A stretch of DNA of 64,000 bases from Isurus oxyrinchus (GCA_026770705.1 JANJGN010000034.1:3720001-3784000), one strand, 5' to 3'; shown: positions 1,929-55,761, numbered from the stretch's first letter. Numbers and translations are program-made. Notes: generated from the letters alone by a model not told the origin.

Positions 1929-1958
1929 CTAATTTGATCACTGAAGTCTCTTGATTTA
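1929..1958 (-). CDS. candidate class C micro-exon, 30 nt, (V)NQETSVIKL
   Basis: Minus strand reads cattactaag|TAAATCAAGAGACTTCAGTGATCAAATTAG|gtgaac. It ends TTAG|gt like other B/C exons, but the acceptor is weak. Confidence 0.4.
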
Positions 1959-3627
1959 CTTAGTAATGTTAACACAACAGAGAATACTTTGTTATAGGAC
2001 ATTATTTTATGATTGCTTTAAAATTGACAATTCATACAGCACCAACCTTAATATAATCAAACACGTCACAGAATATAACATTGGAAGGTAGGAGTATAAT
2101 CCTAACTTCGTATCAAATATGTATCGAACAGTCTGGGGTGGGAGGTGGGGGGGGGGGGGGGGACGGGGACGGTGGGCGTGGGAGTAAATCAGAGATCTCA
2201 GTTGTTTACCCTGCTTCTCTCCTCAAAGCTGCTTCCAAATATAATGAGAATTCGGAGCATTTTCTGGTATTATTTGAGACTTCCATCACTTGCATTCTGT
2301 TTCATTTTTTGGCATTTTTGCAGTTGTTGTAGTGTGCTGGAGGCTGTTTGGCATATGTAAGTTAAAGTATAGAGGAGCATTAAATATAGTTGCATGGCCA
2401 ATACCTGATTTGTAAGATTTTAGCTTTCAGCAAAAAAAAAGCAAGGAGAGCACGATGCTGATTTTTGAATGTCTTTGTGTAATCTAAATTTTGTGTTCAA
2501 ACAGGTGAATTGTGTTAAATTTGAAACGAGGAGGGACTGCTGCTTTTTTTTTTAAAGGCGTTGAGCAGGTGAAAATCATTGAATATATGGAATAGAAAGT
2601 TTTGCTGTTAAATGCAAATATGCAGGGTGATATCCGATTTGAGTATTAATGCTGGGCTGCAGATTTGGACACGTTTCTGGTTTGTACAGAGGAAAGAAAA
2701 AAATGTGAAAGCCGCAGAAGACAGCTGGTAAGAAATCCCTCCTATGGCCTTCCCACAAGATCATGTACATGAACGTATTTATGAAAATCCCAGTATTATA
2801 TTCAGTGTTGCACTTCTGAAGTTGGCTTTTCCCAGGGTACAATAATGAGACAAACATGAAAACCAAAGACAACATTTATTTAAATCCACTGTTTCTGGTT
2901 TCTGCTTGGTTTCTGCATTTTTCTACCATCTTATTACTCTCTAATATATCTACGTCACCGCAATTTTGGTTTCATCCGCCCCTCAGGCTTATAACTCTCA
3001 ACCACTGGCGTCCTTACTTTCATCTCCTTTATTTTGGCACTTTGCGAAATAAACATATGTTACTTTGACCTTAAAAGACCCCCTCAACTCAGCCCCCCAG
3101 CACCTTTCCTTTCTCCCGTCCTGATTTCACTGACACATTTTGTCTTCCTTTCTCGTTTTGTGCTGAATTGAGATGCTGGTTATGTTCGACTTAATTGCTC
3201 CCTAAGAATCTGATGCCTTAAATAACCTTTGCTAATTTGGAGTTTGCACAATAGGGTTGTTATATTAACGGACGTCCAAAAGAATGGGTTTGGTGGCGTA
3301 TGTCCAGTACTCTATTCTGAACAAGTTAACTTCATTTCCTAAATTATATTGAAGCATTTGACAATACTTTGTCTTACAATAGTCGCTCTGTCATCTTACA
3401 GTGCAAATAAATAGACCTAGCGGCATTGTCTCTTGCGAATAACAGAGTCAACCTAATTTGAATATGATGTTGCTCTTTGCGAATTCGCGGAATTTGACCT
3501 GATATTTAGGCAGATATTTGGACAGAGCCTCAGCTGGCGACACATTAAAGCAGCATTAGGAAAAATAAAACGAAACATGAGTGTAACACAAGTGCTTGAT
3601 TTAGTACGTATTTCATTAAATTTTCAC

Positions 3628-3654
3628 TTCTTCTTTCCATCTTTCACGTAAGTT
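3628..3654 (-). CDS. candidate 27-nt micro-exon with in-frame TGA, (E)LT*KMERR; terminal or poison exon
   Basis: ttggaacag|AACTTACGTGAAAGATGGAAAGAAGAA|gtgaaa. It lies 100 nt downstream of a class B exon, similar to the 12909-to-12807 spacing. Confidence 0.4.
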
Positions 3655-3754
3655 CTGTTCCAACGCAAATGGATGGTCCAGACAAGCGAGTGAAATATAA
3701 CCATATAGCTGCTCATGCATCTATTATATAAATACAGGATGACGTTCCCCTCAC

Positions 3755-3790
3755 CTAACTTTATGGTCATTAATTTGCAATCTGACAACT
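3755..3790 (-). CDS. class B micro-exon, 36 nt, (E)LSDCKLMTIKL
   Basis: gtttgtttttcacttgcag|AGTTGTCAGATTGCAAATTAATGACCATAAAGTTAG|gtgagg. Strong splice sites and open in phase 1. Confidence 0.75.
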
Positions 3791-4276
3791 CTGCAAGTGA
3801 AAAACAAACAATGTTGCATTAATTGGAATCCTTACTGTGGGACACTTAGAATGTCTTTGATTGCAATGGTCCTAATATCTCCAAGTGTATAAACAACAAT
3901 CTGTCCGAAACACTCCATACGTTCACATGAATAACCAGAATGGAATATTGATCACGAGACTACTACTGCCAGCAAACCATGGAGATAAATCGCAGCTTAA
4001 ATACACTGGTCCATTTTCATTACATTGATTACCCATTTTTACTCATTTTAAGCAACAGCATTCGCTGTGGTGAAAAATACGAGCGCTTCATTTAGCTAAG
4101 AAAGATAACATATCCCTTAATGGAAGAAAACATAAACAAACAGATATTATACATAACAAGCCCTTGATTAGGTACGGGCCAAAATTATAATTTCATATCA
4201 TGAAGGGCCACCAATGGGCAATTCATAATGCTGTGCAACCACGTGGGTGAACTTTTCGACCCGTGCCAACAAGTAC

Positions 4277-4306
4277 CTTTCTCTTTTTGTTTCAACGTTT
4301 CTTCTT
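4277..4306 (-). CDS. class A micro-exon, 30 nt (27 nt with the alternative NAGNAG acceptor), (E)EETLKQKEK
   Basis: ttcttttcttcag|AAGAAGAAACGTTGAAACAAAAAGAGAAAG|gtactt. Nucleotide-level homology to 15704-15730 and 22598-22624, including the donor flank. Confidence 0.8.
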
Positions 4307-4479
4307 CTGAAGAAAAGAAAATTATTCAAGTTGATCATGTACATCAATATGTTCCAAAGAATATAACATGCGTCACTTCAAATGGATATCTGGCTTAATT
4401 TGTTAAGCATCAAAGGAGGAAAATAAAATCTATTTAGCGAAACACCTGTCACAAGGAAATTGCCAGAATCCATTATTCA

Positions 4480-5820
4480 TTAGATTACAGCAGGATACTT
4501 ATAAAACCAACTTGCAAACCGACAGAGCGGTCGGTCGTGGCATTTTGAAAGGGAAATCGTGGTTACCTAACACATGAGATGTTTTTTTTTTCGATTGACG
4601 GTGTAACAAGCAAGTTGGATAAAATTTAACTTGTAGGTGTTGTGTAATTAAATTTCCAAAGGCATTTGATAAGTTGCCACGTCAAAAATGCAACATAAGT
4701 TAAGAGAACATGGGGTTGCGGCAACATATTAGTTTGGTTACCTAGCAGGAAGCAGAGAGTAGGGGCAGAAGTATGCGTTTTTCGGTTCACCAAGCTTTCA
4801 CTCGAGGAGTCCAACATGGATCAATGTTGGGGCTTCAACTATTAATAATGTTTATAAATGATTTGTATGTTAGGATCAAATTTACGGTAGCTAAATTTGC
4901 TGAAGGCATGAAGATATGCAGGATGGTACGATGCCGAAATGATGCCCAGAGCCTTAAAAGCGAAATACACAGGTTAAGTGAGAGGGCAAACATTTGGCAG
5001 TTTGTGTGCAATGTGCGAAAGTGTGAACTTGCACATTTAGCCAGAAAGAATGTCGAAGTGGTACACTATATAAATATTACGAGATTACAGAACTCGGTTG
5101 TACAAAGGGATTTGGATGTCCTGGAACATGAGCAGTAAACAGGAAGTTAGTATGCAAGTCGGGCAATTGATCAGGAAAATAAATTGAACGCTGCCCTTTA
5201 TCGCCAGAAGAATGGAATATCAACGAAAATAAGTTTTACCGATGCTGTCTAGGGCATTTTTGTGATCCCATTTGGAATAATATGGAGAGTTTTGGTATCC
5301 TGTTCTTTAAGACGTGATTGCTTTAGAGGCATTGGAGAGAAATTTCACTCCATTTACTGAATAGCTTACGTTACGAAGATAGGTTGGACACGTTCGATCT
5401 CTTGGCATTGGAGGGTGCAAGAAGGAGAGCTGATTGCATTTAACATTTTTAATTCTGCGGGGACTTGGCAGGGTCGATACACGTTCATTGTTTCCGGTTA
5501 TGCGAGAGATTAGAACGTGGGGACACATTTTAATCATAAGAGGTGTCCTTATAAATGCTGAGGTGAGCAGAGTGTTTCCTCTCTCAGAGTTCCATAGGTA
5601 TGTGTAAATTTCTTCCACAAAGGGCAGTGGAGAATGGATACGTCAAGTTATTCAAGACAGAGCTAGACGTTGATGGATAAAGGAATCAAGTGTGATTGTG
5701 AACAGAGGGGTCAGTCGAGCTGAGGCATCATCCAGGTCAGCCACGATGCTATTGGTTGGCGGAGCAGGTTGAAGGGCCGAGAGGCTCACTTCTGCAGCTA
5801 AGTCCTATTTAACTATGTTA
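4480..5820 (+). mobile_element. CR1-clade LINE, 3' half of ORF2 plus 3' UTR, decayed
   Basis: RT motifs NFQRHLISCH (~DFQKAFDKVPH, frameshifted), GVQHGSMLG, FINDL, KFAEG (~KFADD) and QRDLDVL, plus a typical shark CR1 3' tail (ggagcaggttgaagggccgagaggctcact). Confidence 0.9.
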
Positions 5821-12783: not shown

Positions 12784-12807
12784 CTAGCTTTACAGGTACC
12801 TCATTAA
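12784..12807 (-). CDS. class C micro-exon, 24 nt, (V)NEVPVKL
   Basis: gagatttcatag|TTAATGAGGTACCTGTAAAGCTAG|gtattt. Lies 101 nt downstream of the class B exon 12909-12944. Confidence 0.6.
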
Positions 12808-12908: not shown

Positions 12909-12944
12909 CAAAAATTTTGTACTGACTGTTGCAAAGTTGCAACT
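12909..12944 (-). CDS. class B micro-exon, 36 nt, (E)LQLCNSQYKIF
   Basis: ctttgttcccttacag|AGTTGCAACTTTGCAACAGTCAGTACAAAATTTTTG|gtgaga. Confidence 0.75.
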
Positions 12945-15703: not shown

Positions 15704-15730
15704 CTTTCTCTTTTTCCTTCAACTTCTTTT
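15704..15730 (-). CDS. class A micro-exon, 27 nt, (E)KKLKEKEK
   Basis: tctcccacag|AAAAGAAGTTGAAGGAAAAAGAGAAAG|gtacttgctg. Homologous to the exons at 4277 and 22598. Confidence 0.8.
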
Positions 15731-16631
15731 CTGTGGGAGATTGATTTAATTTATTTAAAAATGCAGCTCAAATTTTATTTCTCCGTAATGTTCTGAAGGT
15801 GAATGGCAATGCACAATCTCAAATATTTGCTAATTTCAATAATAGGGTAACACGCTGCCAGCTTGGCCGGTGGCAGAGCTGCTAAGTGACTGATAGAAAC
15901 CACATCGCAGTTAATGTGGGCCAAAGAGAGGTAGGCCAGTGTCTCAACAACAACATCTTAGCAACAGATGTGGATGGAGACTGCGCACAACTACAGTGGA
16001 ATTAAAGTGGGACAAAGTTAATCCAACAAAAGCTCTAACAACAAAAAACAACATCTGAAAAACAGCTATCTATCATGATCTTACAATCGCGGAGGGGGAC
16101 GATTGGTGAAGTCCTTTAGATGTTCAAACATTGGCTCGGGGTAGGGGTTGTTATCTCATGTGGCAATGTAAATAGTAAAAAGAAAACGGTTGGGAGTGCA
16201 CCAAAAGAAATGTCAGAATCATAGTGATGAAAAGGTATAAATCACTAAGCGTGTGCATAATGACTTGTGCGATTCACAATAGTCTAGGAAGTCATGAATG
16301 CGCAGTGAAGTCATAGAACTGTGATAGCATGAAATCGTACGTTGATCCTGCTCTTGGGATTATGCATTTTTTAAAAAAATGTAAACAATCAAAACGTAAA
16401 AAGTGAACGCGCTGGGGCCGAAGCCAGACGTTCATTCAGGGCGCAGGGCTGTGTCAGAATGGCGGTTTACGAATGGATAACACATATCTGCATAAGATAA
16501 ACTCCCTTGTGGGAAGAAATTTGAGGAAGCAATCTTTCGGACACGGAGAGTTGAGAGATTCAACTTGGTGGCTTGACATGAAAAATCATCGAAATATTGA
16601 AATATGGAAGAAACTGCAATGTTATCCTTAC

Positions 16632-16661
16632 CTAATTCCGCTAGAATTTTGCCTTCTGCTT
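16632..16661 (-). CDS. class C micro-exon, 30 nt, (E)AEGKILAEL
   Basis: cccttctgtattgcag|AAGCAGAAGGCAAAATTCTAGCGGAATTAG|gtaagg. Confidence 0.8.
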
Positions 16662-17565
16662 CTGCAATACAGAAGGGTAGAATTTCAGGCATAAATTTTT
16701 AACGGGAGCTTTTCTCTCTTTTTTACAAGGACTGGATTGAAGGGAAACAACCGGAAAGGGAAAACTTGTTCAATTGGCGCAGTTGAAGTCCCCAGGACGC
16801 CCCAAAAGAAGGTTGTAAGCTAGCAACTAGTTTCGAAATTCAGTTTAGCCTCGGGATTATCCCTATCTTTGATACCTTTCGAAATTGTTAATAATGAACA
16901 ACAGTGAGAAAGAGGGACTCTGCCCACTGTGTTTGAAAATGACCAGGACATCAGCGCAATGTTAAAGAATGAGTATTAATGCAATTGGATCCCTATATGG
17001 GTGTTCTTAAGAATGGAATTTGATGTCTTTACATCAAAGTCTAAACTAAATTTTTTGTAAAACATCTGGCAAAGTCCTTTTAAATGACGCACAACCATCT
17101 GTTCAATGTTGCCTATTTCAAAGCCGCGAATGGTCTGAAAAAAACCTTTATTTTTATTTTCTCCATATTTAGGAAGGCATGTTTCAAAAGAATGTAAAAT
17201 TAAGCCAGCGGCTTGTGTTATTTTTTTTTTTGCTGAACAGGAATAGCCGATCTAATTTTAAACCTTTGTATGTACAAATACGCGATGACATCCGTTACTG
17301 TGCAACACATTGTCCAGAAACGTACTTTCAATGCTCCAGCGTTAAAATCCATAACTTTTTAATGAAAGTCCACTGTATGCTTCAATTTCTGAGATCAGTA
17401 TCAAGTTAATGATTCGCTATGAACAATAAAAATCACAAAATCACACCAGATCTGTTTAAAATGCATTTAGCCTTTAATATTTTCTCGAATATTTGCAATT
17501 CATATAAATGGTTTTACGTAGTCTGCAGCTGAGAGCTTTAAAGAGTTTCAGATAATTTTGCTCAC

Positions 17566-17601
17566 CTAAATCTGTCAACGACTTTTTGCACGTGGTGAAT
17601 T
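17566..17601 (-). CDS. class B micro-exon, 36 nt, (E)FTTCKKSLTDL
   Basis: tttttattctcttgtccag|AATTCACCACGTGCAAAAAGTCGTTGACAGATTTAG|gtgagc. Confidence 0.8.
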
Positions 17602-17839
17602 CTGGACAAGAGAATAAAAATAGCCATTAGTATTTCAGCTAAATAAATCTTGCTTAATTCTTAAACATACCAATATCTAAAATTGCACAAATTACTTGTA
17701 ATTTACAATGCAGAAACCGTGCAATTTTTCCGCATGCTTTATTCTCTTATGTGGACATCATAGAAGCCAGGCATATTCAATCTGATCGTAGCAGCATACT
17801 CTTCCACTCAATTCTACTCCATGCTCTTCCTTTCTTTCA

Positions 17840-18480
17840 AGCAGCACTATTATTTAGTTCAGCAATTTGTTACGGTTTTGAGGTCTGCATTTCCCCTGCG
17901 ACTTGTGTATTAGTTTTTATTCTGAATGCCCCGCTGTATTAGTCAGTGATTGACGAATAGCTGACGTCAAGAAATGTCTTCATCTCACACACTATGCCCC
18001 TGTAAAATAAATGTGGGAAACATATCCGCCTCTCCTGTCTTACCGGAGATGAAAGTTTATTCCTGTCTGGTGGATGATTTTCAAACAACCCCAGTCTTGT
18101 GTCAGCATTTTTGCAATATGCGGATTTTAAGCATGCACAGTGATCCACGCATGGGTTTACCAATTGCTACAGATTTGTAACGTTACTTTGATGCATACAC
18201 AATTCTAACAATCTGAATGTCATTATTGAAGGATATTCATCCAACGTTTTTGCCAGCCGTTATTCAGAGCTGTGACTATCTTCCAGTTTTTACCCGTTTT
18301 TCCCAGATAAGAGAAACATGTCAATTCAAAACACAAACTCTGCTAGGTGTTCCCATTTGGTTAGATACGCCTGAAAATTTCTTACGATTCAGATCTGCTA
18401 ACAGAGCAAACATCCGTATTAATTCTGGCACCTTGACATTTTTCGTTCTCCAAACTTCCTCTCAAAGTGTTGCATAATTA
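17840..18480 (+). mobile_element. highly decayed LINE reverse-transcriptase remnant
   Basis: Collinear weak matches: YGF, DVKKC (~DxxKAF), and LL*CIHNSNNLNVIIEGYSSNVFA (~LLFxIYINDL..IEG.ISKFADD). Confidence 0.4.
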
Positions 18481-20354
18481 AACTATATACCACAAAGCCT
18501 GTTCAAGTCTAAGTAAAACGTCGGTTTTAGCGCCAAATTCGGTAACACATTCTACGTGTTTTACACTCCTAGCATTTTGAAGCCTTCGCCAAACTATCAC
18601 TGAAGCCGATCCGTACTTTTGGCTTTGACGGCCTTGTTCCCCACTTGTGCTCCAACGGTATTTTCTATCGGGCCGAAGCTGAGAATTCCAACAACACCCG
18701 GATTTAATGTAATCCGAACATCATTTTTTTTTTTTATCGTAGTGCCGGAAGTATGTTGTTAAAACTGCTTGCTTTTAGTTCTATGACAACATATGCAATG
18801 GTTAACGGATTACACGAAGCGGCATATATTTGAATCAATGGATAATTTTGTCGCGGAATATAATTAAATAAGTTGTCCATCTGATTAAATGGGCGATTAA
18901 ACTTCAATAATTTATTGGTTTTGAATGTATATAACGTCAGTTATTGAGCGATCAGCGGTTGGAAACACCCTGATTTTTAATTGAATTAATCACAACTCGC
19001 TTCCATTACTTGAAAATTATGCGCCTTTTGTGAACCAGGAATATTTGTCGAACAAATGCCCAATTGCCGAGCCAGTGCACTGAAATTATCTTTCATACAC
19101 ACGAGATCCACTTTGATCTTTACAAGTCTGCTGAACACTAAATTATTTGATCAGGCTTAGTAAGTATCTGCCTTGAAGAGTATGGAAAATCTGGTGAACT
19201 GTCAGAAACATCTTTGAATTTTAGGTTTTCAAGATCTATGGGCCATTATGCTGAATGATTGCAACTTTTCAAAACATTCTTGGTCTTTTTGTTGTCCAAT
19301 TATCTGGGACGGGGAAGATTATAGATAGAGCAGGAAAAAAAGTAATTTTAATCACCAACCTTCTCTCAGGGCACGGACTGTTTCCGCTGTTGAAAGCAAT
19401 AATTTAATATGTGACTAGCCGCTTTATTATTATTAGCATTATTTTCAATATAATCCACTCATTAAATATAAGGAAGGATGAAAACAATTATTAGACCTCC
19501 CATGAAAGTCTGAACCAGATTCATAAAAATAAGGTACTACTGATAATGAAAATGAGCATTTGATTCCACGGTGTATTTCATATTATGCTATTTATTTATA
19601 TATTGATTTGTTTGGTGCATCACACATTTGTAAATTAGCTTAATTGCCAAAAATACCCCTCAAAATGCCCTGAATAGAACTAAAGACGGATCTGTGAACG
19701 GCTTTAATGTTCTTTTTGATGGACAGTGTACGCACGGAGCTAACATCCAATGAAATTAGCTCAACAATGATCTCGAATAAATTAGCAAAATAGAACCGAT
19801 TCGATTCGATATGAGATAATGGCATCTTGCGGGTTACACTTTGAGTTTCCTGGAGACCTATTTCATTGCTGGTTTCAAATCAGAAATGTTGATTATATCC
19901 TTTAAACCACAACTCCCAATGAATGGTCGGAATTTGGATGAACTCATTTCACTAAGGTTCGCCTCCAAGGCATGGTATGTCAATTCTACATGGAAATAAA
20001 TAGGTCAGGTAAGTATTAAACTTCACTGTCTAAACTATATTTCTTCGTGAATATAATTTGAACTTGGAAACGTTTGCATCAGTGATGCTCTGAATTAAGT
20101 TAGTATTATATCTTGAATAGATATTCCCATCTCACCACTGAAGTCTCATCTACATATTAAACTTAAAACATCGAAAAAATCACATTGTTAATCTAAATAA
20201 ATTTATGATCGAATTGACATGTTCAAATTGTACGCCACTAACCCAATAAAAAATCTGAAAAGCAATAGCTTTAAAAAGGGGGAAGTTGTGCGGCACTCAT
20301 ATCCACCATTGATTAGAACAGGAGGAAAATCCTGAGGCGTGACGATTCAAATAT

Positions 20355-20486
20355 AAAAACAAAAAACTACGGATGCTAGAAATCCAAAACAACAACAGGA
20401 TTTCCTGGAAAAACTCAGCAGGTCTGGCAGCATCGGCAGAGAAGAACAAGGTTGACGTTTTGGGTCCTCATGACCCTTCAACAGAA
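20355..20486. mobile_element. Penelope-like terminal repeat fragment (common shark repeat)
   Basis: ggatgctagaaatcc...ctggaaaaactcagcaggtctggcagcatcggcagagaagaacaaggttgacg. Related copies occur at ~27590-27760 and ~52640-52780. Confidence 0.65.
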
Positions 20487-20671
20487 CTGAAATAGTAACA
20501 GACAATGTTATGGAGAGAGAAGCAGAGTTGAATCATCACGCATTGGCAGAGAAGAACGAAGTTGACATTTCCAGTTCTAATGACCTTGAACATCAACTTT
20601 GTTCTTCTCTGCCGATGGGTGACGATTCAACTCTGCTTCTCTCTCCATATCATTGTCTGTTATTATTTCAG
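20487..20671. repeat. long inverted repeat (about 83-bp arms, about 17-nt loop)
   Basis: Left arm ctgaaatagtaacagacaatgttatggagagagaagcagagttgaatc... is the near reverse complement of 20588-20671. Confidence 0.9.
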
Positions 20672-21714
20672 ATTCACAGTGTCTGCATTATGCACCTACA
20701 TATTGGCTATAAAGCATATGACGTGCTGTCTACTTGGCTGTTTGCAACTATCAATTTATGTTTGTGTGTGCGTGTGTGTGCATTCATACCTGATTCCTTA
20801 GTTTTTGTTTTTCGGAAATGTACGAGAAAATTGAACAACACGCCAACACATGTAGTTGCTGAGTCGGCGAGTGCAGGCGCATTTAGGGACATGGGACACA
20901 AGCATGTGAAATGTGTTTAATAAGGAGGTTACTGCTGAGCAAAGGTGGAATAATACTGGATTGGAATATGGTAGCTGGACTGAAGCTGCTTGGCTTAATT
21001 TTGTGCTTCTCTGTTGCATTCTGTAAACTATTCTGTAAACTGTAAATCATGGGCATCAATAAATCTCTCGGATGGCTTCCCCCTCGAACAAAGCATGGAC
21101 ATTTTCATACAAGGATCCTTTCAACAATAACATTTGTCTACATTGAAATGTATCGCTCGGTGGTCCAACAATGGCGCAATAAAATAAACGTATGTGTTTC
21201 TCCCTTCACTGCTTGCCTTCGTCGCTGCAATCTCCTACCTTCTGATAGTCAATTGTGTCTGCAATGTTCTAATTCAGTTGCGTTCTGCACCTCTGATTTA
21301 AATTGCCCCGTATTTTTTCGATCAATCAGTTAGTTCCCTGATCTTTGCATGCTGCTCGTGTTGCCAACTGCAGCACCGCCCCTCCACCCCACCCCCAACA
21401 CAACTATTTTCCACTCTTTCACTGAGCTGAAATCAGAAGCCAGATAATTTCTGCTTCAGAATTAGTAATACTGTGTATACTTTGACTAATTTAACTGTGA
21501 TAAACCGAGAGACTTTTATTAATACTGCTGAAAGACTATGCTGTCATAAAACGTAACATGTTTTTAGATGGATGTACAGCGCTTAATCACTAACCGATTG
21601 GTTAAAAAGAATGATTGATTCTTCTTTTACAAAAAAAAAATTGAATCATTTAACAATCTCATTGGCATCCATGGCCGAAATGCACTATTTTTATTATCTA
21701 GAAAATGGAAGTAC

Positions 21715-21741
21715 CATTTACTTTTTTGCTTAATATGCGAA
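21715..21741 (-). CDS. candidate class A micro-exon, 27 nt, (V)RILSKKVN
   Basis: aaattatag|TTCGCATATTAAGCAAAAAAGTAAATG|gtactt. Same length and donor as other A exons, but a weaker acceptor. Confidence 0.5.
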
Positions 21742-22029
21742 CTATAATTTGCTCTGTGGATCCAGATATTTTCGACCTCATGCTTTGACCAGGTCTGTGG
21801 GCGGAGCCTACTTTTTGCAAACTGACAACTGAGGCCGTGTCAAGGAAAAAAACACCATAACAGTAGTTTATGGTTTTACGTGCGCCTCATTTACTTCTAA
21901 AATTACCCCACCTTTGACCTATGTTCAGTTCCTATAGAACTGGATGGCGCTTATATAACTTTCTTGGGAAATGTAAACTATAACTGTCATGCCTTTGAAA
22001 TTAGAGGAAAAACAATCTTTTCTTCTCAC

Positions 22030-22065
22030 CTAACTGTTTGGCCAGAGACGACTCAACTTTCAACT
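22030..22065 (-). CDS. class B micro-exon, 36 nt, (E)LKVESSLAKQL
   Basis: gcttccttcacttacag|AGTTGAAAGTTGAGTCGTCTCTGGCCAAACAGTTAG|gtgaga. Confidence 0.8.
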
Positions 22066-22597
22066 CTGTAAGTGAAGGAAGCGTTGGTATCATCACTTAA
22101 ATAGCAGCCAGATGTGACTTGGATTCATTTTTGTTATGGGACATTTACAATACCTGGTCAACAGAATGCTGCTAATGTATTCAAGAACATAAAGGTAAAT
22201 CGTTACGATACACATGTCTGCACAGCAATTATGAGAATTGAAGATTGATTTTTATTTTTTTTTTCTCCAGGGTGCTGCATCCAGAAAAGCATGATGATAA
22301 ATCTCAGATATAATAAATGTTTGCATGTCGATAACATTATTCGACCCCAAATATTAATTATCTGCAACAATATTACCGGCCAATAATTGGGATCCTTCAA
22401 TCAAGCCAAGAAGAAAAAGCGCACCTCAATAAATAAACAAGAAAAAGATCAGATGCTATCGAAAATAAGTCATTGATAAGATAATGCCTCGCCTGTTAGT
22501 TTCGAATATATTGGACAGCTAATTGCTTGGGTCTATGTAGCGCAACTACACTTTTGCAATTACAGCCCAAGACTTAGAAGCAAGGGACAGCAAGTAC

Positions 22598-22624
22598 CTT
22601 CATCTTTTACTTTCAACTTTCCTT
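22598..22624 (-). CDS. class A micro-exon, 27 nt, (E)GKLKVKDE
   Basis: ttctactcacag|AAGGAAAGTTGAAAGTAAAAGATGAAG|gtacttgctg. Confidence 0.8.
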
Positions 22625-23363
22625 CTGTGAGTAGAAATGGTATATACATTCTCAGCAACAAGGTGATCTAACGAATATAACATCATTCACAACAGATTCA
22701 TATTTGGATACTATTTAAAGTTTTGAACTGCAAATGCAAAAAATTATTGATCAGGGCAACGAATACAACCTGTATTGGCATAGCACCTTTCATTCATAAG
22801 AAAGTCCAGCAGGTTTTACAGGTGCATTATCATTTTCTATATGATACCTAAAAATACGAGGTGGAGTGCAGGGGGCAAAAAGAATGAATTAATGAAATTG
22901 ATCATTAAACTGCGTGGCAAACTGGCTGCGATGGTCATAGCGGGTATGATTCTGAAAACTAAATTGATGTAAACTTTAGAAAGAACATTCCCCAAGCCTG
23001 AGGAACATGATATCTACTATGCATAATGTTTGCAATGCACAAGGGCGCATCAATAAAGGACTTATTTGACCTGGCAGATCGACGACTCACAAACAGAGTT
23101 TCTGAGGTAATTTCAAAACAGGCTGTTTTTCCTCTGTTTCTTTTTATCTTTTGCATTGAGTGGTTTCACGCTCAGGAAAAAAAAAATGCAAATCATCGAA
23201 ACTAAATCGGCAGGGCGACTGAAGTTCGAAGTCCTGCAGCAAAATTCTAGAGGGGCATAATTTTAGCAAACGATAAAAAAAAGGCAGACGGACGCGCAAT
23301 GTTTTGCGATAGTCAGTTGCAGTTTCAACAAAGAATGAAAACAGGAAAAAAAAGTGTCCCCAC

Positions 23364-23393
23364 CTAATTCTTCCACAGTTTTCCCAAATGCAT
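23364..23393 (-). CDS. class C micro-exon, 30 nt, (D)AFGKTVEEL
   Basis: cttgttaattccgcag|ATGCATTTGGGAAAACTGTGGAAGAATTAG|gtgggg. Peptide pattern A-x-GK-xxx-EL matches the exon at 16632. Confidence 0.75.
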   Translation of the reverse strand: MHLGKLWKN

Positions 23394-26300
23394 CTGCGGA
23401 ATTAACAAGACAATTTTTCATCTTTAACGTTTCAGAAAGATGCGTCCTTCCTTCTCTCCCAGGAATCCGGGAGATAGCCCTTTGCTAATCTCTGAAATAG
23501 CGATTGTGGCAGTTCTATATTTCTCTGTTTGGCAAATGTCCCACCAGCAGCGATCAAGAAGCAGTCTGTGGGCACTGACATTGGAGAATTTCCCTACAAT
23601 TGTGTTTATGGATTGTAAAAGTTGCATCAATTAAAACACTCTCGTCTGAATTAATTGCTATTCGTGGATATGGTCTCTGCTCACTTTTACTTAAAGACCT
23701 CATAGCAATCCTACGGCCTGTTATGAATCAATGCATCATTTGTTTTTTGACTGTGTGCCCTAAATGTGGACTGGTGCTCCCAAGTCAGAGAACATGTTTT
23801 ATATGCCAGTCTGCTTAAATTTTCAGCTCCAGTTGCTGGTCATCAGCAATGCAAAAAACAAAGCTAGAATTGTAAGCCGCACCCTGTCGTTTTACTGCGC
23901 CTCCATCAGAAAAGCATCAGTGGTGCCTCCACGTGATAACACAAGAAAATTGGATCCCCCGTGGCTCCAGGCTAAATCTTGACAAGAATTCCGAGCAAGG
24001 TTTGCCCAAAACATGATTTGTGCAGGCTCAATGCTGAAGTAACATGCACCGACATGTAAGGGCCACATTCTTCAAAATGGGAAGTCAATCCGCTGCCATG
24101 CGGGCAAATCAGGAGAGCTGATAGCTGAAGCACTAAGTCATCAACAGCTTCATTAAAAATGGCTCTTGTTTAGAGCGAAATAGGGGTAGACATGCAATGA
24201 AATTTGGATCCTTTAATGGAGTTAATTGATCAGATTGAGTAAAATAGAGAGTCCAGGATAAGTTCGCGATCTGGAAATATTTCTGAAGATGTCATGGATA
24301 GAAGACAAATGTAGTGGTAACGATATTATTGAACAAAAATGAAGGAGCAAATTGTGACATTATGGCCGTCCAGCGGATTTAGCTAATTATAGAGCTTTGG
24401 TCTTAGTTCACTTAAAGTAAAGCGAAAGAACAATCAGAGACTGCCACTATGGGCGGGGGAGTTGCAAGCGGTGGGGGGAGGATGGCACCTTTGGCAGTCG
24501 GAGCAAATAACGTTTTCACTATCCCATGCAGAATGCATCCTGAATATTTGAAGTCTTTACCAGATCATGTACCACATATTTTTCCAGAGCAAATATCATT
24601 TTGTCTCTTCATTCTGCCTTAATTTTAATACCTCTCTGTTCTAGCAACAATGTTTTCTTTTTTCTTTTGATATTTTTTATTTAGTTTTCCTTCGCCTGTG
24701 CATCTGTCTCTTTTTCTCCAACGTAGAGTCCAGAGCTACGCAAAACATTGCAAATGTGATCAAAAGCGTGTGCTAAACGAATTTAACACAATATGCCTGG
24801 TTATGAATTCTATCCCTGTAAATCTATGTGCCTTCTCTGAGACGCAAAATGTCCAGGCTTCAGTATGCTGACCTCATTTTCCATTCCGTACTCAATCTAT
24901 GCCAACACCTTCAAACGTTATTTTACGTGTTGCAAACATATTTATTATGCCTCTTTTATTCTGTGTAATTCCGTACTCTGCCATAGGTTTCCCATCTGAT
25001 CTGGATGTCTGTGATGAACGAACACAGTATCAAATAACACAAAATACACCGTTTCCAATTCATCCCTCTCGAATTACACTCAAAATGTTGAAAAATGAAA
25101 TATAGAGCACACATGTTTCCTCAAATTGTAGCGCCAGCACCTGTTTCCCGGCATTCTGTGATCATCAACTCAAACCCGGCTGTTTTTGTCTAGTGTAGGA
25201 AGATAACTCCTGGAGGAAATATTAATTTCGTGCCATGTATGAAACAACAATTTTGCCCTCGCCCAGCGATCATCAAATTTAGATTCCGCAAATGGGCAAG
25301 CATAACAGAAAGGAAAGGTCAAATGGCCTGTATTTTAAGGCAGTCCTCCAAGCTGTGCTCTGCCTGCGCTTGAAGTTCTTTGGCATCCACCTCCCATGTC
25401 CCTGATTTGTAGCGAAAAACGTGTGTCTTTGTGAAAAAAAAAAACTGCTGTCAAGCTTTTCGTAACGTACTTCAGGGCTGATGATCAGGGCAGATTTAAA
25501 AGGGCACATCAATTCATTGATGAAAATTGAATGCTGATTGGTTAAGACATGGACGCTGATTGTTCAAGGAGATGATGCCGCCCAATGATGACACCCCATG
25601 CTTTTGATTAATTCAACAAATAAATAAAAATTCCATTGCTTGGATTATGTCAGCGCCTTGCCTTTCCCGAACAGCCAAAGGGAAGAGTGGCTTGATACGA
25701 TCCGCTCAACCTGCTAACTGCTACAGCCTATGTACCTGGCATTGCAACAGCACTGGAATTCATGTACCACATCCGCCAGCTTCGTGGCAAGGCAGAATTT
25801 TTTTTTGGTTGAATGGAAGGAGTTCCCCAGTAATTAATACCACTTCTTTGCTACTGCATATTAACGGCGTTAAATGGCTAGCTTAATTTGCTGTTCTAAT
25901 TAATGTGGTTTCTAACTGGGGGCAGATTCCCTGCATCTGAACAGAAGCATCATTTTATTCCTTGCAAAGCTTGTTTCCATCCACTGTCTATAAAATGGCG
26001 AAAGCCATGCTTTGCATGGTTATCATTGGCTGAGCAATGTTAAGTGTCAAATTGCTTTGACATGCTGTTCTGTGAAGAGTCTCGTGAGGTTTTATTTCGA
26101 AGCCAATTGAATGTTTCCTTCGCTCCTGTTTGCTTTCATTGTACAGTTGAATCAGTACCGTACCATGGTCCTCCATCCATATGCTCCTAAGTCTAACACC
26201 ATATCGCTTTTTCTGAGCCTAAGAAAGATCATGTTACCCTTCAGCAACAAGACGTGTTTCCAAACGAATATCGAAAGATATATCCATGCAAAGGTGTGAC

Positions 26301-27367: not shown

Positions 27368-27394
27368 CTAACGCCTTTTCTTGTATCTTTGCAT
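27368..27394 (-). CDS. class A micro-exon, 27 nt, (D)AKIQEKAL
   Basis: ctttctctctcacag|ATGCAAAGATACAAGAAAAGGCGTTAG|gtagat. Confidence 0.7.
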   Translation of the reverse strand: MQRYKKRR

Positions 27395-33155: not shown

Positions 33156-33317
33156 NNNNNNNNNNNNNNNNNNNNNNNNNNNNNNNNNNNNNNNNNNNNN
33201 NNNNNNNNNNNNNNNNNNNNNNNNNNNNNNNNNNNNNNNNNNNNNNNNNNNNNNNNNNNNNNNNNNNNNNNNNNNNNNNNNNNNNNNNNNNNNNNNNNNN
33301 NNNNNNNNNNNNNNNNN
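33156..33317. other. assembly gap (162 N)
   Basis: Run of N. Confidence 1.
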
Positions 33318-38900: not shown

Positions 38901-41569
38901 CTTCATGGCTTGCTATTCTTTCGAGTGTGGTATCGTTGAGAAATTTTGAAATTTTCCTCAAAATTCCAAGATTAAAGTATCTTACATATAATACAATGCA
39001 ATCGTCTAAATACTATTTTAAGGCAATTAAATAGTAAAACATTTGGAAAAAGCACCAACCCTCTTGTAATCCACTTATTGTATCCGCTGTTAGAGACAAA
39101 CAGAATATGTTACATCTATGCAACAGCAGATTAGTTACAAAAATACTGAGGAATAGAATATTTTGATCAAAGAAACACAACAAACTTCAGAGATGCAATA
39201 ATATGTTGAAGTACAATGTCATATACAGCTTTTATGCAACAACGCTGGCAGAGATTCGAAAACTCTTTATGCACCATACTGGATATGCAGTTCCATTGCA
39301 GCAAGTGGGGCTGAATATACTGAGAAGTAAGTATAATCCATGGTGACCTGACGCTTTTCTGCACTGTTAACAATTCGATGCTGTCAAAATTACACATCAA
39401 GTTCTACTTATCCTTTTCTATGTTGCATATCGTCTGAACTTTCTGAAATAGTCTTCACCAGTCACTGACTTCCATACGCAAGAATCATGGAATGGCATAA
39501 TAATAAGCAGGAGGCCATTCGAACCATTTATTCTGTGCAGACTCCAGTAAAGAGCAATTAAAATTGTCTCACACTGCCAGTCTTTTAAAAGTACGATCAA
39601 CTTTTACACATCAAGCATATCGAAAATAAATTGAAGGCTGCTATAATATCTCGTTTCACTGTGATGTCAGCAGGACTTTTCAACTTCACTCTAGCCGTGG
39701 TGACAAAGCTTTTTGTTGATGCTATTCTTCCTCGTTGGCCAAGAAGATGGAAACTGATCCCTGTGGCTATGGTCATTCCAGACATTCGAAACAGGTTTGT
39801 TTTATTTATTCTCGCTGAACCATTTGTATCAATTCTGGCAATTCTACACTCAGCTTTCTCTGCTAAATTGAAAATGCGGAGAGCTTGGCCCAGCCATCCA
39901 TTTTGTCCAGCTACCCATGAATCAGGAACACATTTCACAATGTTCTGGCCGATGGATAAATACATTGGATTGGGGCTAATCAATGACGGACTGGTTTACA
40001 TTTTGTAAAATAATGCAGTAATGCATGTGGTAGGAGGGGAAAGGGATGTTGGAACACAAAATCCAGAAATGTGTCCTAAATATTATGAAGGTGAATATTA
40101 ATAAAGAGATTAAAGAAGTAAAAAAAAACTATGATATACATTGGAGATTATAGCTGTATCAAAAATGTCATGCTGCAATCGAACAATCATACCTGGAATG
40201 CCCAGCACAGTTATGTATAACATATTGGCGCAAATATTTCGATTTCGGAAGGCCATACCCCAGAAGTTGCAGTAAAACGAATCATTAACTGTATTTGCCT
40301 GGAAATTTGAAACTGCTGGTGGGCAACTACCCTGCACTCAGAAATAGCCCGCACTCCAAGTTACATTGGAGATATTGGATGCTTTTGAATGTCGGAACAT
40401 AATAATTACTCAGAAATGTGACAGTGGTTAAACCAGTGCTTACTCCGGGGTAACTACAGGACTGACATCCCACTCACCCTCGAACACCATGGTATCCCAA
40501 ATACTACAGCCAACCCGACTACCCCCAAAAGTCCCAACTATCCCTACCGGTCCCCCGAGTGACCCTCCAAACTCCACAGCTTTTCCCCAACCAATCAACA
40601 AAATCCCCCCACCTCTGGGCCTGCGCCGACAACTCTACACTCCCCCACCCACCGAGACCTTTCACTGACCACCAGACATGCTGCTCGCTCCACTTACTAT
40701 CCTACATCCCTCACTCATACTCTCCCTTCCTAAGTGCTACATTGCAAATTGCCCGTGCCCCTGACTTCTGAAAATTTCAGGAGCCTTTGAAACTGCCTGC
40801 CTTACAGTAGCTAGTGCCTTTGAAGTGCGTTGGGTAGGTGGTGAGTTTTGATTTCCCTCGACTCTGCTGCACTTTATTCACCTGGTCCTGTCGAATGCTA
40901 TAGTTGCAGATGCATGTAGGTAAAAGTAAAAATGAGGCGCGTGGCAAACCAATTCCGATTCCTCTCCTCGGAAGTTATTTCCCTTGAATGAATAGTATGC
41001 CATAGAGGAACGTGTGAAGGAGCAATTTATATTCTCACGTGTGGTGGAAGGATAGAAAACATCATGCTAGTGGAAACTGAGCAGAAAATTAGGTTTCCTT
41101 TTAACTTAAAATATAAGATTTATTTTTTCCTAATAAACGGTACTCAAGTATGCATGTCACTTATTTACAGTTGGCATAGAGAGGCCAATCATGCTTGCAG
41201 AACGAAATAATTATTTATCTTCCATATTAAATCATCATTGAATACTCAGATATGGAATTCACGATGGATGGATGCACCAAGAAGTGAAGATTTGGAATTG
41301 CAGCCCCCCCACCACCGCCACACTCCACTCAGAGATTATGTAAAAAAAAACATTGCCCTGGCAATAAAGTTTAAGCGATCAAATCATTTGGGGGCCGGGG
41401 GTGGGGGGGAGGGGGGGTGGGGTGAGGTGGGGGAAACTGAAGTGTAATGCTGATGTAGCTGGTTCAGAATGGATTGGAATATGAATGATTTGAATTAACC
41501 ATTACGCTTATAGAATTGAAAAGGCTATTTCTGGGCTGTATGGTTTACGCATATTTATGCATTCTGCAT

Positions 41570-42060: not shown

Positions 42061-42919
42061 AAGCAGCTGAACTGGCAATATTGCTACTGAAATGGTGGTA
42101 TGGTCAAAAATGCAAAATTTAATGAGTGTGTCTTTTGTTTATAGTAGAACATGCAGATTAATGTCACTGGACAGGAATTCATAAACCGTGTAGGGAATCC
42201 AGTTTTCTCTCTGGTGAAAGCAATTCGGTAGTTAGAAACAACTTTTCACATAGAGCGCAAGTTTAAAAGTTTGAAGAACTGCAATGTGCTTTTGTAGGAA
42301 AATGTGAAGGGGAAATGTTAGGCTACTTGTTTAGTTAAGTGGTATTAGTTACGTTGGCTCGTAAAATTGTTAATAGGGCGAATCAGGGAAACAAAACTAT
42401 TTACAGATATGCGCAGTCGGGATCAGCAAGTTACTGGTTGCAGCAGAAACTACGATCATGCCTCGTGCTGGTTGCTAATACACATTTAAAGATGAGTCGT
42501 CCTTTGGTAAAATGCAATTTTACAGGATCCTGCATTCTCTTTGCCTCTGCAGGCACCTTTACAGGTAATGTAATCTCTGCATGCTACAGAAGTCAAGACC
42601 TCTGCGTGAGACAAATATTGTTTCTCGACTTCGAGACGATCAGTATCCATGCGTCTTACCACTATTTTTTAAAAATGTTTTCCTGGACCGCCGAAATTTC
42701 GGAATTTCGACCAATTGATCTGATCAGTATTGAAAACTTGGCCTGATCTGGAGGGAATAAATTGTGATTCAGTGCAGGTTACATGGTTAAACAAAAATGA
42801 GGATATATATGCATAAGTCACATGTCATAGAGCTTAACATTGCAACATTGATTGTGCTTCTTCAGCCCCATTCCATCTCTACTGTATTTTACATGAATTA
42901 TCAGAAAGCATTTTCTTAC

Positions 42920-42955
42920 CACACTTCTTAAGAAGAGCGCTGCACTCTATAAATT
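42920..42955 (-). CDS. class B micro-exon, 36 nt, (E)FIECSALLKKC
   Basis: cattctttttacttacag|AATTTATAGAGTGCAGCGCTCTTCTTAAGAAGTGTG|gtaaga. Confidence 0.8.
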
Positions 42956-43599
42956 CTGTAAGTAAAAAGAATGAACAGTTTACCATGGGCCTAACAGGCA
43001 ATGTTCTGTTGCCTCGATTGCTGTTCTTGCACGGTGATGATAAGGGGTTATGGAACTAAAGCTTGACATCTGGCCACATTCTGAAATATATTTTTGATTC
43101 TTTCCATGCCTTTCCAGGGCTCTCCTGAAATCAATACATTTTCTGAAAAAGAAAAATGACAGAACACATCAAGAACTGATGGTTATGCCTGGAATCTAGT
43201 GCAAGTGGGACCGCACCAGCAAGTATGTTCAGTTGTAATTGATGTTAACAATTTGAATCCAACTTAGAACTGTAAAACCGCAATGACACATCAAGCTAGA
43301 CCAAAGACCAAGATAAAAGAATAAGTGCCCCACTACCCATGAATAAAAAATTCGTTCTTGGAAACTCTGACTCAGCAGTTGCAATTTTAAAAGATTTGTA
43401 AGCTTTTCCTATGACTAGGCAGCATATCCTTCTGCACAGGAAGTGGAGCTCAGTCTGCACCATGAATCACTTGCAAATGTGAGATGTTGGTGCAAGTAGG
43501 ATATCGATGCAGAGGGAGAATGAGGTGATTTGTTTTATTTTCAAACCTTCTGTAGGTTGTGAAGATTGGTATATTTTTCAAGCAAAGAAAATGGAAGCC

Positions 43600-45807: not shown

Positions 45808-45834
45808 CTTTTGCGTTTGCCTTCAACAGCTCCT
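45808..45834 (-). CDS. class A micro-exon, 27 nt, (E)ELLKANAK
   Basis: tgtctctttaacag|AGGAGCTGTTGAAGGCAAACGCAAAAG|gtaggg. Confidence 0.75.
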
Positions 45835-50131: not shown

Positions 50132-50158
50132 CTCTGCCTTTGATTTCTAGCTTTTTTT
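50132..50158 (-). CDS. class A micro-exon, 27 nt, (E)KKLEIKGR
   Basis: attttcttcctaatag|AAAAAAAGCTAGAAATCAAAGGCAGAG|gtaact. Confidence 0.75.
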
Positions 50159-51760: not shown

Positions 51761-51899
51761 CATGGCATAACTTTAATATTGTATCGGCTTGATGAGTCAT
51801 TTTTACTTTCGTGCTATATATTCTAGTAATTCCACTTAAAACGTATAATTTTGACTTTACAAAGGAAAATCCAATTGATTCCATCGAAGTACATTCGAA

Positions 51900-53189: not shown

Positions 53190-53525
53190 TTTATGAAGAG
53201 AGTGATGATTGGTTGGTAATTGGCGTAGCCACGCAGAATGTATAACTTGCGGTGATTACAGTTTTATGCAAAGCGTTATTTGAAATGTTAACCTGACAGT
53301 TTGATCCTCATTGGTGAAGATATTTTTAGCAGTCAGTCACCTTCAGTAGGACATTCTCTGCTGGAACGTTACTTTCCAACCAATCAACTTTCTCTTCACA
53401 TGCATTATAAATTGTTGTTATCCCCTTACACTGGTATTCTTGAGAGTGTCCTGATGAGTGCGAGACGAAGAGATTAGGTATCTCTCTTTATTCAGCGTTA
53501 TTCAAGGTCTGTACTACCAAATTTC
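53190..53525 (+). mobile_element. Penelope-like terminal sequence with a degenerate hammerhead-like core
   Basis: ttataaattgttgttatcccctt...ggtattcttgagagtgtcctgatgagtgcgagacgaag. Confidence 0.5.
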
Positions 53526-53877
53526 TATTAGAAATTTATAAGGGAATATTCAGGAAAAAATAGATTTTAGTATGGGTTTAAAGTCCTCCTCTTGTGAATA
53601 CACTGATAGAAATTCACAGATTTGTAAAATATAATGCTTAGTTATTTTATATTTCCATTCACTGGTGTAATTTAATCAATGTTCAATTTAATTAAACAAG
53701 AGTTTGAAAACCAATTGGTAAGAAAGTGTATTCAAACACGGAGTCGAAAAATCTAAGTTGTTTGGGAATATTTCATTTCAATTCAGCCTTGATTTAGCTG
53801 ATACAGCATGAGGATGCGAGCAGTATATGTAATTGCTCATGGAATTAGAAGTCAATATATATTAATATTTTTCTCAC

Positions 53878-53913
53878 CGAAGTCTATGACGAGAGACCTA
53901 CAGACTTCTAACT
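53878..53913 (-). CDS. class B micro-exon, 36 nt, (E)LEVCRSLVIDF
   Basis: ctcttttcacttcatacag|AGTTAGAAGTCTGTAGGTCTCTCGTCATAGACTTCG|gtgaga. Confidence 0.8.
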
Positions 53914-54887
53914 CTGTATGAAGTGAAAAGAGAAAGGTTAATGCCTTACAGTCAATGCTGCATAACTTTAATCTCTTATTGTAGATTAATTAGTATATGC
54001 AGTCAGTGGACGAAATGTGGGCTACAAACGTTTTATCGGCCTCCAGGTAACTTCTGGTGACAAACTCTTCCGGATTTGTCCAAATTTCTAGGAATGTGTT
54101 TCGTTCTTATCCCTACATGTTGGTATGCATTATTTGCGTTTGTAGGGGAGCAGTGGATTCTTAGCAGGGTATCACCTAGGATAAAGCGTTCACATTAGTT
54201 TCAGAGATTCAGGAGGACGTGTTGGGGTTCCCAGGAATCTGAAATATTTAGTGGTGATTTCATCGAAGATATCGCGGGAATAATGGTAACAAATGTGGAT
54301 GAATGCAAAACATTCACAGTGACTTGTACGTTTAGAAGCTGTATTTTAAAAATGGTGGGAGGTTATTCAGGAGTGAAATTAGGCAGCGCATCTGCATGAA
54401 AAGGTATTTTTTTCTGTGCAAATAGTAACTAAAGCGACATCAAAGGCAAATAGTACATCTGTGATGTGTGTGATATTATCCTCTAATCACAACAAAATGT
54501 CAGGTACGTGTGCTATGGGCTCTGGTCTGCCATTGGATCACGTAAAGTACTCTTGGGGCGAAATACCAACCACTTAGTTCATATAATCCTTTATATAAAA
54601 CATGAATGCAGTTGGAATGATTCTAAATTAATATTTCTTGCATAGTTCCCTTTAATGATAGAAGCATTGTGGAACTTTAGACATTAGACGTTTTTACTGA
54701 TAGTCTAGATTTATTGAATAACCCTCAACACAGCTAGATGTCAAATGCGACCTATTCTCGTAGGCAGCTTAGGACATTTCCCTGGAAGATACTTATCCAA
54801 TGGCATTTGAACTAATGCCAGCAAGTGAACGGAGCGCTGAAACTAGAATCACCACTTCATCAAGTATGCAACAGAGTCAGTAGTTAC

Positions 54888-54914
54888 CTTTTTCTGCTGC
54901 TATCAATTTTTGAT
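54888..54914 (-). CDS. class A micro-exon, 27 nt, (N/D)QKLIAAEK
   Basis: gcctttttccgtcacag|ATCAAAAATTGATAGCAGCAGAAAAAG|gtaact. Confidence 0.75.
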
Positions 54915-55731
54915 CTGTGACGGAAAAAGGCACTCATATTATGTCCAAGAATGCATTCAGATAAATATCGGGAAAATCAAATTGATATTGTACAAATGAA
55001 AATACTTCTTTAAACTCATCCCGTATTTCATGAAATTGTCAACTTGCATTGACATTGCGTCTTTAGCAATAGCAAACGAGCACATATTTGCATATGTGCA
55101 GAATCATACGTGTGGCGACACCAATGAACAGAAGTGAGGTGGGGACGGGGGCCGCCAGGTGTGGGTCGGGGTTGGGAGTTGGGGGAGGGGGGAGAGGGGT
55201 TTAAGATCAGGTGACCAAACGACGGATGTACTTAGTAAGCAACACGTAGAAACTAAAAGATAAGAAGTTTCCTGAAAAATAAGTGCTTTAGCTGACGCAA
55301 TCCACAACTTAAAGCACAGCAATTCATTTGCTTATTCATTCACCGGATGTGGGCGTCGCTGGCTACGCAAACATTTATTGCCCAACCGTTAGCTCCCTTT
55401 TCCAGATATTAGAGTTCCTTTCAGAGTTGGAGTAGCACACCGACCTTCAGGTTTTGCATTGTCACACGAATAAGGTCTTAGATGGATGGGCAACAATGGA
55501 TGGAAGTGTTAAAGGGTTAAAAGGAATTATTTGCTGCAACCTGGAGGCAATGCTCGTCCTCAAAAGAACTTATGCAATCCAAAGGTGATTATCCATGTGT
55601 CTGTAAACGGCAGCATAATTTTGAATGCTCTCAAATTTGGCGAATGCGCAGGTTGAGTGGTTTGCCGGCAGACTATTGGAAAAGTCTACACGGGTGCTGA
55701 GTAACGACACACAGCAATGAAAACTACAAAC

Positions 55732-55761
55732 TTTCCCTAACTATTTCTCCCGTTTCTGCTT
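55732..55761 (-). CDS. class C micro-exon, 30 nt, (E)AETGEIVRE
   Basis: ttttttttcttccag|AAGCAGAAACGGGAGAAATAGTTAGGGAAA|gtttgt. Starts AAGCAGAA like the exon at 16632; the donor is weaker. Confidence 0.55.

Follow-up and report, generated by a model that had tools for sequence, protein, structure and literature searches.

A predicted half-megabase gene of phase-1 micro-exons with a terminal B30.2 exon in the shark Isurus oxyrinchus

Can exons of 24 to 36 nucleotides (nt), scattered over tens of kilobases, be the coding body of a gene, and if so, of what kind? The question is raised by a 64,000-nt stretch of DNA from the shark Isurus oxyrinchus (the window; C34:3,720,001-3,784,000, where C34, and C21 below, are contigs of this 4.98-Gb genome). 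A preliminary description of the window had proposed that its minus strand hides the interior of a gene, made of symmetric phase-1 micro-exons that encode a coiled coil. This proposal was borne out by the analyses reported here, in which 400 kb on each side of the window was also examined (864 kb in total). The whole window (positions 1-64000, minus strand) reads as predicted gene interior, continuing beyond both ends, within an array of micro-exons that very probably forms one gene with a terminal B30.2/SPRY exon. Positions given without a contig name are counted from the first letter of the window.

The exons stand out by strand, length and frame. When generic, untrained splice-site tables were applied to candidates of the form AG-(27/30/36)-GT, the window yielded 13 candidates on the minus strand vs. 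1 on the plus strand, against a background of 0.5 per length; the opposite strand had been suggested beforehand as the null. Phase 1 is free of stops in all 13 candidates, whereas the other two frames are interrupted in 12 and 4 of them. The generic thresholds were passed by 12 of the 18 exons listed in the preliminary description. A splice and exon model trained on 52 exons, all outside the window, found 16 minus-strand and no plus-strand candidates in the window at threshold 18 and, at threshold 14, 22 candidates vs. 0-2 in each of 12 shuffled sequences, these counts including overlapping alternative candidates. A tandem repeat was sought in the window and none was found. The peptides of all 18 listed exons could be placed on the minus strand in phase 1. 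Sixteen of these exons score at least 13 with the trained model, and the remaining two (21715-21741 and 12784-12807), which have purine-rich, poor acceptors, did not score. Clustering of the exons together with their flanks revealed several 27-nt and 36-nt classes that recur in order, and the proposed C-A-B grammar holds only in part. The three-class rule proved too simple: there is at least one more 27-nt class, and the 36-nt exons fall into several subclasses.

The array is much larger than the window. It runs on the same strand from about C34:3,974,961 (perhaps 3,991,854), which is 191 kb past the window's end, down to 3,478,419, a span of about 500 kb, and contains roughly 100-120 phase 1-1 exons, mostly of 27 or 36 nt. 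Over this span the untrained tables gave, on the minus strand, 36 candidates with a length of 27 nt and 26 with a length of 36 nt; the plus strand has 2 of each, and about 4 per length are expected as background. A phase-1 stop is present in 2 of the 62 minus-strand candidates, whereas the other frames are interrupted in 39 and 29. The trained model, which was held out for the window and not for the rest of the array, gave 96 minus-strand vs. 0 plus-strand candidates at score 17, and 129 vs. 11 at score 13. From these, 117 exons were selected, 68 being 27 nt long and 40 being 36 nt; the set certainly includes some false exons and omits some true ones. It translates into 1,174 stop-free residues, 49% of them K, E or L; its median intron is 2.3 kb and its largest gap 37 kb. 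The earlier estimate of about 200 amino acids (aa) spread over 54 kb thus gives way to 1,174 predicted residues over about 500 kb. How the array grew can be read in part from its introns. Because the introns flanking paralogous exons are still alike (p-distance 0.33-0.35 vs. 0.45 for random pairs), the sequences point to growth by tandem duplication of exon-plus-intron blocks. The introns flanking the B exons of the window are near random (0.42 vs. 0.45). The introns also carry remnants of LINE/Penelope-like reverse transcriptases, and a 199-codon frame on the plus strand (C34:3,913,815-3,914,411) looks by eye like a mobile-element remnant.

Below the array lies an exon of a kind that the preliminary description had suggested seeking at lower coordinates. 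A motif scan located a single B30.2/SPRY exon at C34:3,474,116-3,474,636 (minus strand; 172 codons in phase 1, good acceptor, stop present), beyond the array end at 3,478,419. It matches the Pfam SPRY family with an E value of 2.9e-18; among solved structures its best sequence match is the B30.2 domain of BTN3A1 (profile E 2e-32), and its predicted structure (pLDDT 62) has TRIM7, TRIM11, TRIM21 and BTN3 as top Foldseek matches. It is the only B30.2 exon in the 864 kb. The minus strand has 17 long open frames in phase 1 that follow a fair acceptor, and this exon was the only one of them recognised by eye as a non-repeat domain; motif patterns for C-type lectin, fibrinogen, C1q, TNF, SRCR, olfactomedin and KASH motifs gave chance-looking matches only across the 864 kb. 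The array and this exon very probably constitute one gene, of whose roughly 1,350 predicted residues the micro-exons supply about 1,174, and it is likely that the exons of the window are spliced into one transcript with the B30.2 exon, which lies 245 kb before the window's start. Contigs assembled from four RNA runs of the same species do not cover this exon, and contigs from four runs (three of them shared with the first set) do not cover the B30.2 exon of paralog 4. For positions 16000-24000 of the window no RNA run with matching contigs is listed. None of these results is evidence either way.

The gene has relatives, both on the same contig and in other cartilaginous fishes. Five related B30.2 exons lie on C34, at 2.71 and 3.47 Mb on the minus strand and at 4.82, 6.40 and 7.50 Mb on the plus strand, each preceded by micro-exons of the same strand, and two more family exons are found on C21. 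Database models of relatives come from catshark (P0002, P0169, P0166), little skate (P0157), electric ray (P0160), chimaera (P0163) and basking shark (P0043), under TRIM-like or A33-like names (TRIM39/58/69-like or A33-like). A Pfam scan of six of them returned SPRY as the sole family. A strong transmembrane stretch is present in none of ten family models, and nine of the ten lack a signal-like N-terminus. In a tree of 32 B30.2 domains, all 13 family rows fall on one side of a branch with 100/100 support, apart from 12 TRIM and 7 BTN rows; the bootstrap had yet to settle completely, the tree is rooted arbitrarily, and choosing its rows by their similarity to the query makes the clustering partly one of construction. 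With its B30.2 domain in the family clade and a micro-exon array on the same strand, the gene belongs to a chondrichthyan coiled-coil and B30.2 family distinct from butyrophilins and TRIMs. The gene family, which had been thought unassignable, can therefore be assigned. No published description of this family was found in the literature searched, which did not cover subscription journals and supplements.

Two catshark models connect the prediction with annotated proteins. P0002 is 72% identical to the window's gene over B30.2, is its sister in the tree with 100/100 support, and aligns in order with four of its last micro-exons; on these grounds it is likely to be the ortholog. The model has 358 aa, with a repeat-like front and only the last few micro-exons, and it is the only close relative returned when longer homologs were sought by protein searches and by HMMER on representative sequences. 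By eye, P0002 and P0055 include translated LINE-like pieces, a sign of annotation failure. The other model, P0169, has 945 aa, is devoid of a hydrophobic segment, and maps to 14 predicted micro-exons at C21:91.27-91.34 Mb, 11 of them without a gap. The chain score is 394, where the other strand gives 10 and five shuffled queries give 29-44; the mapping covered 80 kb of C21 and so compares only the last part of the rod. Leads to longer proteins come from the ESM Atlas, where SPRY clusters of 1,277 aa (score 0.93) and 1,579 aa (score 0.91) were found, as well as a cluster named 'TPR isoform X51' of 1,802 aa (score 0.76), which is a lead only. The isoforms of relatives in the database differ by 9 residues in chimaera, 9 in catshark, and 6 and 9 in electric ray.

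What would such exons encode? In the 40 exons of 36 nt, hydrophobic residues occupy position 1 in 93%, position 4 in 93% and position 8 in 88%. Of the 68 exons of 27 nt, 75% have a hydrophobic residue at position 3, and Lys is frequent at position 6. A 36-nt exon and a 27-nt exon together make 21 residues, i.e., three heptads with a regular a/d pattern, and the hydrophobic periodicity peaks at 3.5. A spacing of 21 residues is also the commonest between 36-nt exons (18 of 32 intervals). In the chain of the window, the register holds over three B exons in succession, and 30-nt exons shift others; the predicted rod is thus segmented. At each junction the residue is E, D, A, G or V (computed on the assumption that exons end in G, as nearly all do). 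Since the exon lengths are multiples of three and the junction codon begins with G, skipping of any exon keeps the frame and creates no stop. For two sets of paralogous 36-nt exons dN/dS is 0.65 and 0.44, values that come from few sites and from pairs that are not independent; for the B30.2 exons of paralogs 4 and 5 it is 0.45. Constraint on the amino acids is loose; what is conserved is length, frame, splice signals and core hydrophobicity.

We lean towards the view that the product is a soluble, cytosolic, parallel coiled coil that serves as a spacer or cross-linker presenting two B30.2 heads, its length being set by exon skipping. The exons of the array would be spliced into one transcript ending in the B30.2 exon. 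The 36+27-nt pairs would yield three heptads each, with Leu or Ile at a and Cys, Leu or Lys at d, and from this the chains are predicted to dimerise. Frame-neutral skipping would let cells vary the length of the rod: the skipping of a pair would preserve the heptad register, and that of a single exon would introduce a kink. The rise of a coiled coil is 0.15 nm per residue, and a rod of more than 1,100 residues would accordingly reach about 170 nm at full length. Its tip would hold a pair of B30.2 domains and present it to a partner protein, as the coiled coils of butyrophilins and TRIMs do at small scale.

Several observations weigh against this picture. Cys occupies core position 4 in 17 of the 40 36-nt exons, which also suits a disulfide-linked extracellular rod. 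The chain of the window breaks the heptad register in places. Values of dN/dS, with the same limits as above, are 1.06 for a 27-nt set and 1.07 for six 36-nt exons of the window. The micro-exons of paralogs 4 and 5 differ by 9.5% vs. 11.3% in the flanking introns, with no third-position excess and no clear signal of selection. The window itself contains four weak or dead copies. Transcripts of the window's gene were not seen, so that the joining of the window's exons to the B30.2 exon is inferred. The first coding exon was not found and the N-termini in databases are possibly 5'-incomplete; the cytosolic location is for this reason a prediction. Finally, that RefSeq isoforms rest on RNA-seq is background knowledge and not a result of this work.

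The alternative that fares best retains the gene but secretes its product, as a fibrous coiled coil cross-linked by disulfides and tipped with B30.2 (in mucus, egg case, gland or matrix). The core cysteines just mentioned favour it, and the 5' region offers a candidate start: an ATG exon of 10 codons at C34:3,997,772, which has a strong donor and, if joined to a 39-nt candidate at 3,991,816, would read like a weak signal peptide. The join is unsupported, and to take this short exon as the start of the gene is speculation. A search for a signal-peptide exon, by pattern and by similarity to the N-terminus of the skate protein, returned nothing convincing. The N-terminus of skate P0157 is indeed hydrophobic, but it ends in residues that by eye are typical of an intron tail and has no counterpart in the 864 kb. 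As already noted, nine of the ten family models begin without a signal-like sequence, and B30.2 domains are mostly cytosolic. We regard a secreted fibre as unlikely. A divergent paralog begins on the plus strand at about C34:4,010,266, which is 18-35 kb from the window's gene. The two gene starts face each other head to head in the interval of about 3.975-4.010 Mb, where CpG is mildly enriched at 4.004-4.008 Mb, and a shared promoter is possible. Comparison of the 5' zones between paralogs revealed repeats only.

A second alternative is less probable still: the window could be a decaying or optional section, its exons rarely included or bypassed by a shorter transcript from an internal promoter near the B30.2 end. 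The exons of the window are given here in the order of transcription (all on the minus strand). The first is a 30-nt exon of class C (55732-55761) with a strong acceptor and a poor donor, the inclusion of which is uncertain. It is followed by a 27-nt class A exon (54888-54914, score 30.9), a 36-nt class B exon with Cys at the core position (53878-53913), a 27-nt exon of the class found after B exons (50132-50158), a further 27-nt exon (45808-45834, score 24.3) and another 36-nt class B exon (42920-42955). Two 27-nt exons of a fourth class, D, were absent from the preliminary description (39060-39086 and 19360-19386). Between these two lie a 27-nt class A exon (27368-27394), a 30-nt class C exon (23364-23393), a 27-nt class A exon (22598-22624), a 36-nt class B exon (22030-22065) and a 27-nt exon-like segment (21715-21741; acceptor score -7.6) that is probably decayed or rarely used. 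Beyond the second D exon come exons of 36 nt (class B, 17566-17601), 30 nt (class C, 16632-16661), 27 nt (class A, 15704-15730, score 28.8) and 36 nt (class B, 12909-12944), and then a doubtful 24-nt exon-like segment (12784-12807; acceptor score -9.8). The series closes with a 30-nt exon of class A type, whose tandem acceptor permits 27 nt too (4277-4306, score 38), a 36-nt class B exon (3755-3790), a 27-nt segment with the in-frame stop that had been recognised before (3628-3654), either a dead copy or a poison exon, and a class-B-like remnant that has a donor without an acceptor (1929-1955). Two other minus-strand candidates, of 33 nt (43110-43142) and 45 nt (42557-42601), have fair signals, one of them a GC donor, and unlike composition, and probably arose by chance. 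A run of 162 N (33156-33317) sits inside an intron-sized gap and cannot be read.

The four weak or dead copies are those at 3628-3654, 12784-12807, 21715-21741 and 1929-1955. Three of the four lie 100-300 nt downstream of a 36-nt exon, a position that in other repeats holds intact 27-nt partners. These copies suggest birth and death of exons within the array. Together with dN/dS near 1 for the 36-nt exons of the window and for a 27-nt set, and with a catshark ortholog model of only 358 aa that has a repeat-like front, they also give the idea of a decaying or optional section some footing. On the other hand, frame, length and splice signals are far above chance, with none of 13 candidates interrupted, in spite of flanking introns that have become nearly random, and long family models do exist (945 aa, and the Atlas leads of 1,277-1,802 aa). 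We consider decay or optional use of the window improbable.

It is very unlikely that the array encodes the cytoplasmic tail of a membrane receptor of butyrophilin or BG type, the Ig and transmembrane exons of which were overlooked. The layout is the same (phase-1 heptad exons and then a one-exon B30.2), and the BTN3A1 domain is the best match among solved structures. Yet IgV, IgC and transmembrane exons, which had been suggested at higher coordinates, were found neither by Pfam on open frames of the 5' zones nor by protein searches. Among the 150 longest of 288 such frames, which take in every frame of at least 75 aa, Pfam recognised no Ig, RING or B-box family, yet it picked up an Ig exon in the flank of the gene cluster. 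Ten Ig-bearing BTN-like proteins searched against the 864 kb matched only the B30.2 exon and multi-copy repeats, a search that also overlooked the distant Ig exons of the flank and so excludes BTN-like Ig only. Seven RING-bearing proteins likewise matched the B30.2 exon and multi-copy repeats only; the one further match in these searches (E 0.38) is on the other strand. A search of the whole genome for V-set domains gave 3,319 candidates, of which the best 150 all lie outside the cluster; this is weak evidence. The divergent paralog is only some 18-35 kb away, and the tree places the family apart from BTNs. The only candidate for a transmembrane exon is a minus-strand open frame of 123 nt with a good acceptor and a hydrophobic stretch (C34:3,566,907-3,567,029), which overlaps the 36-nt exon at 3,566,907. 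As a constitutive transmembrane exon it was rejected: it is an intron tail, of which 8 of 10 paralogous copies are interrupted by stops, and the genome contains no other copy of it. Use of its upstream acceptor would add 29 codons to the 36-nt exon, and a membrane-anchored isoform is possible. Lastly, although exons this short invite chance AG...GT pairs (about 4 per length over the gene), the reading as chance matches or a non-coding repeat is rejected by the asymmetries of strand, length and frame, the protein match across species and the lack of a tandem repeat in the window.

A soluble rod with B30.2 heads, the reading we favour, invites comparison with known systems. The B30.2 domain of butyrophilins is encoded in one phase-1 terminal exon. 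Butyrophilins, which occur in sharks (e.g., P0187), are described as having heptad repeats followed by a B30.2 domain (PMC4046983, PMC12841164). The shark gene is like BTN3A1 and BTN2A1 in its C-terminal B30.2 and in the small phase-1 heptad exons that precede it, but it lacks a detected IgV, IgC or transmembrane exon, its B30.2 sits on a separate long branch, and it has about 100-120 heptad exons where butyrophilins have a few. Chicken BG genes each assemble a long coiled-coil tail out of 13-36 small exons; the intestinal zipper protein, a BG tail in soluble form, has been reported as a regulator of actin-myosin interaction (PMC4046983). The likeness is in the long coiled coil made of small exons. 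BG exons, however, are of 21 or 24 nt (one heptad), whereas the shark gene has mostly 36+27 nt (three heptads per pair); 108 of its 117 exons are 27 or 36 nt long, so that it is not a BG-type tail of 21-nt exons. BG proteins are also membrane dimers that carry an IgV domain, whereas the shark gene ends in B30.2, spans about 500 kb and has no IgV or transmembrane segment that we could find. Enterophilins of the guinea pig are soluble proteins with a long heptad zipper and a C-terminal B30.2, free of RING or Ig and far shorter. They are probably the nearest in architecture; they are mammalian, and the likeness is probably one of parallel derivation. Enterophilin-1 is named as a partner of sorting nexin 1 (PMC13749957).

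The C-IV TRIM proteins (TRIM7, TRIM21, TRIM39, TRIM58, A33-like) share a coiled coil followed by PRY-SPRY of the same fold, and the relatives of the shark gene carry TRIM names. For the shark family, however, no RING or B-box was found in the open frames of the 5' zones or in six family models, and its coiled coil, built from micro-exons, is many times longer. In short, the shark gene resembles the part of a butyrophilin that lies inside the cell, or the tail of a BG protein, and belongs neither to these two groups nor to the TRIMs. In design, with no homology implied, it parallels the micro-exon genes (MEGs) of Schistosoma, whose coding sequence consists mostly of tiny symmetric exons and which make variants by skipping (PMC4015677). 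Here too most of the coding sequence is in symmetric micro-exons. MEGs are small and mostly secreted, whereas the shark gene specifies a vertebrate heptad rod with a globular head; isoforms of the MEG type, by skipping, are seen as blocks of 6-9 residues in database isoforms of the relatives and not in the window's gene.

Other parts of the cluster deserve mention. A second minus-strand array with its own B30.2 exon extends on C34 from about 3,430,467 down to 2,708,632; only its ends were read, and it would be a gene of about 720 kb if continuous. A neighbouring paralog on the plus strand (C34 4.07-4.18 Mb) has runs of 21-nt one-heptad exons, many with Cys. On C21, two family genes with micro-exon arrays (89.65-89.72 and 91.27-91.35 Mb) are located inside a large B30.2 cluster. 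The flanks of the C34 cluster contain an Ig-domain gene (Siglec-like by eye), a cobalamin-binding protein gene and a GPR15-like receptor on one side (7.52-7.68 Mb), and tectonic-domain and Myb/SANT exons on the other (2.60-2.66 Mb).

In closing, the locus reveals a multi-megabase gene cluster that is conserved across chimaera, sharks and rays and that standard annotation cuts short and labels wrongly. It takes the heptad-exon design of butyrophilins and BG to an extreme, minus the receptor parts. More tentatively, one may think of an ancient, undescribed family of giant genes of cartilaginous fishes that act as splice-programmable molecular rulers, in which the cell type chooses the rod length that places a pair of B30.2 sensors, drawing on more than a hundred interchangeable, frame-neutral micro-exons and reaching roughly 170 nm at most for this gene. 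If true, isoforms would be diversified by combination to an extent for which schistosome MEGs or Dscam are otherwise the known examples. The gene is a natural setting in which to test how a cell splices a hundred near-identical exons of 27-36 nt that are spread over half a megabase, and whether a protein rod is lengthened or shortened by the skipping of exons. Finally, the family bears on the origin of the B30.2-bearing immune families in early jawed vertebrates.

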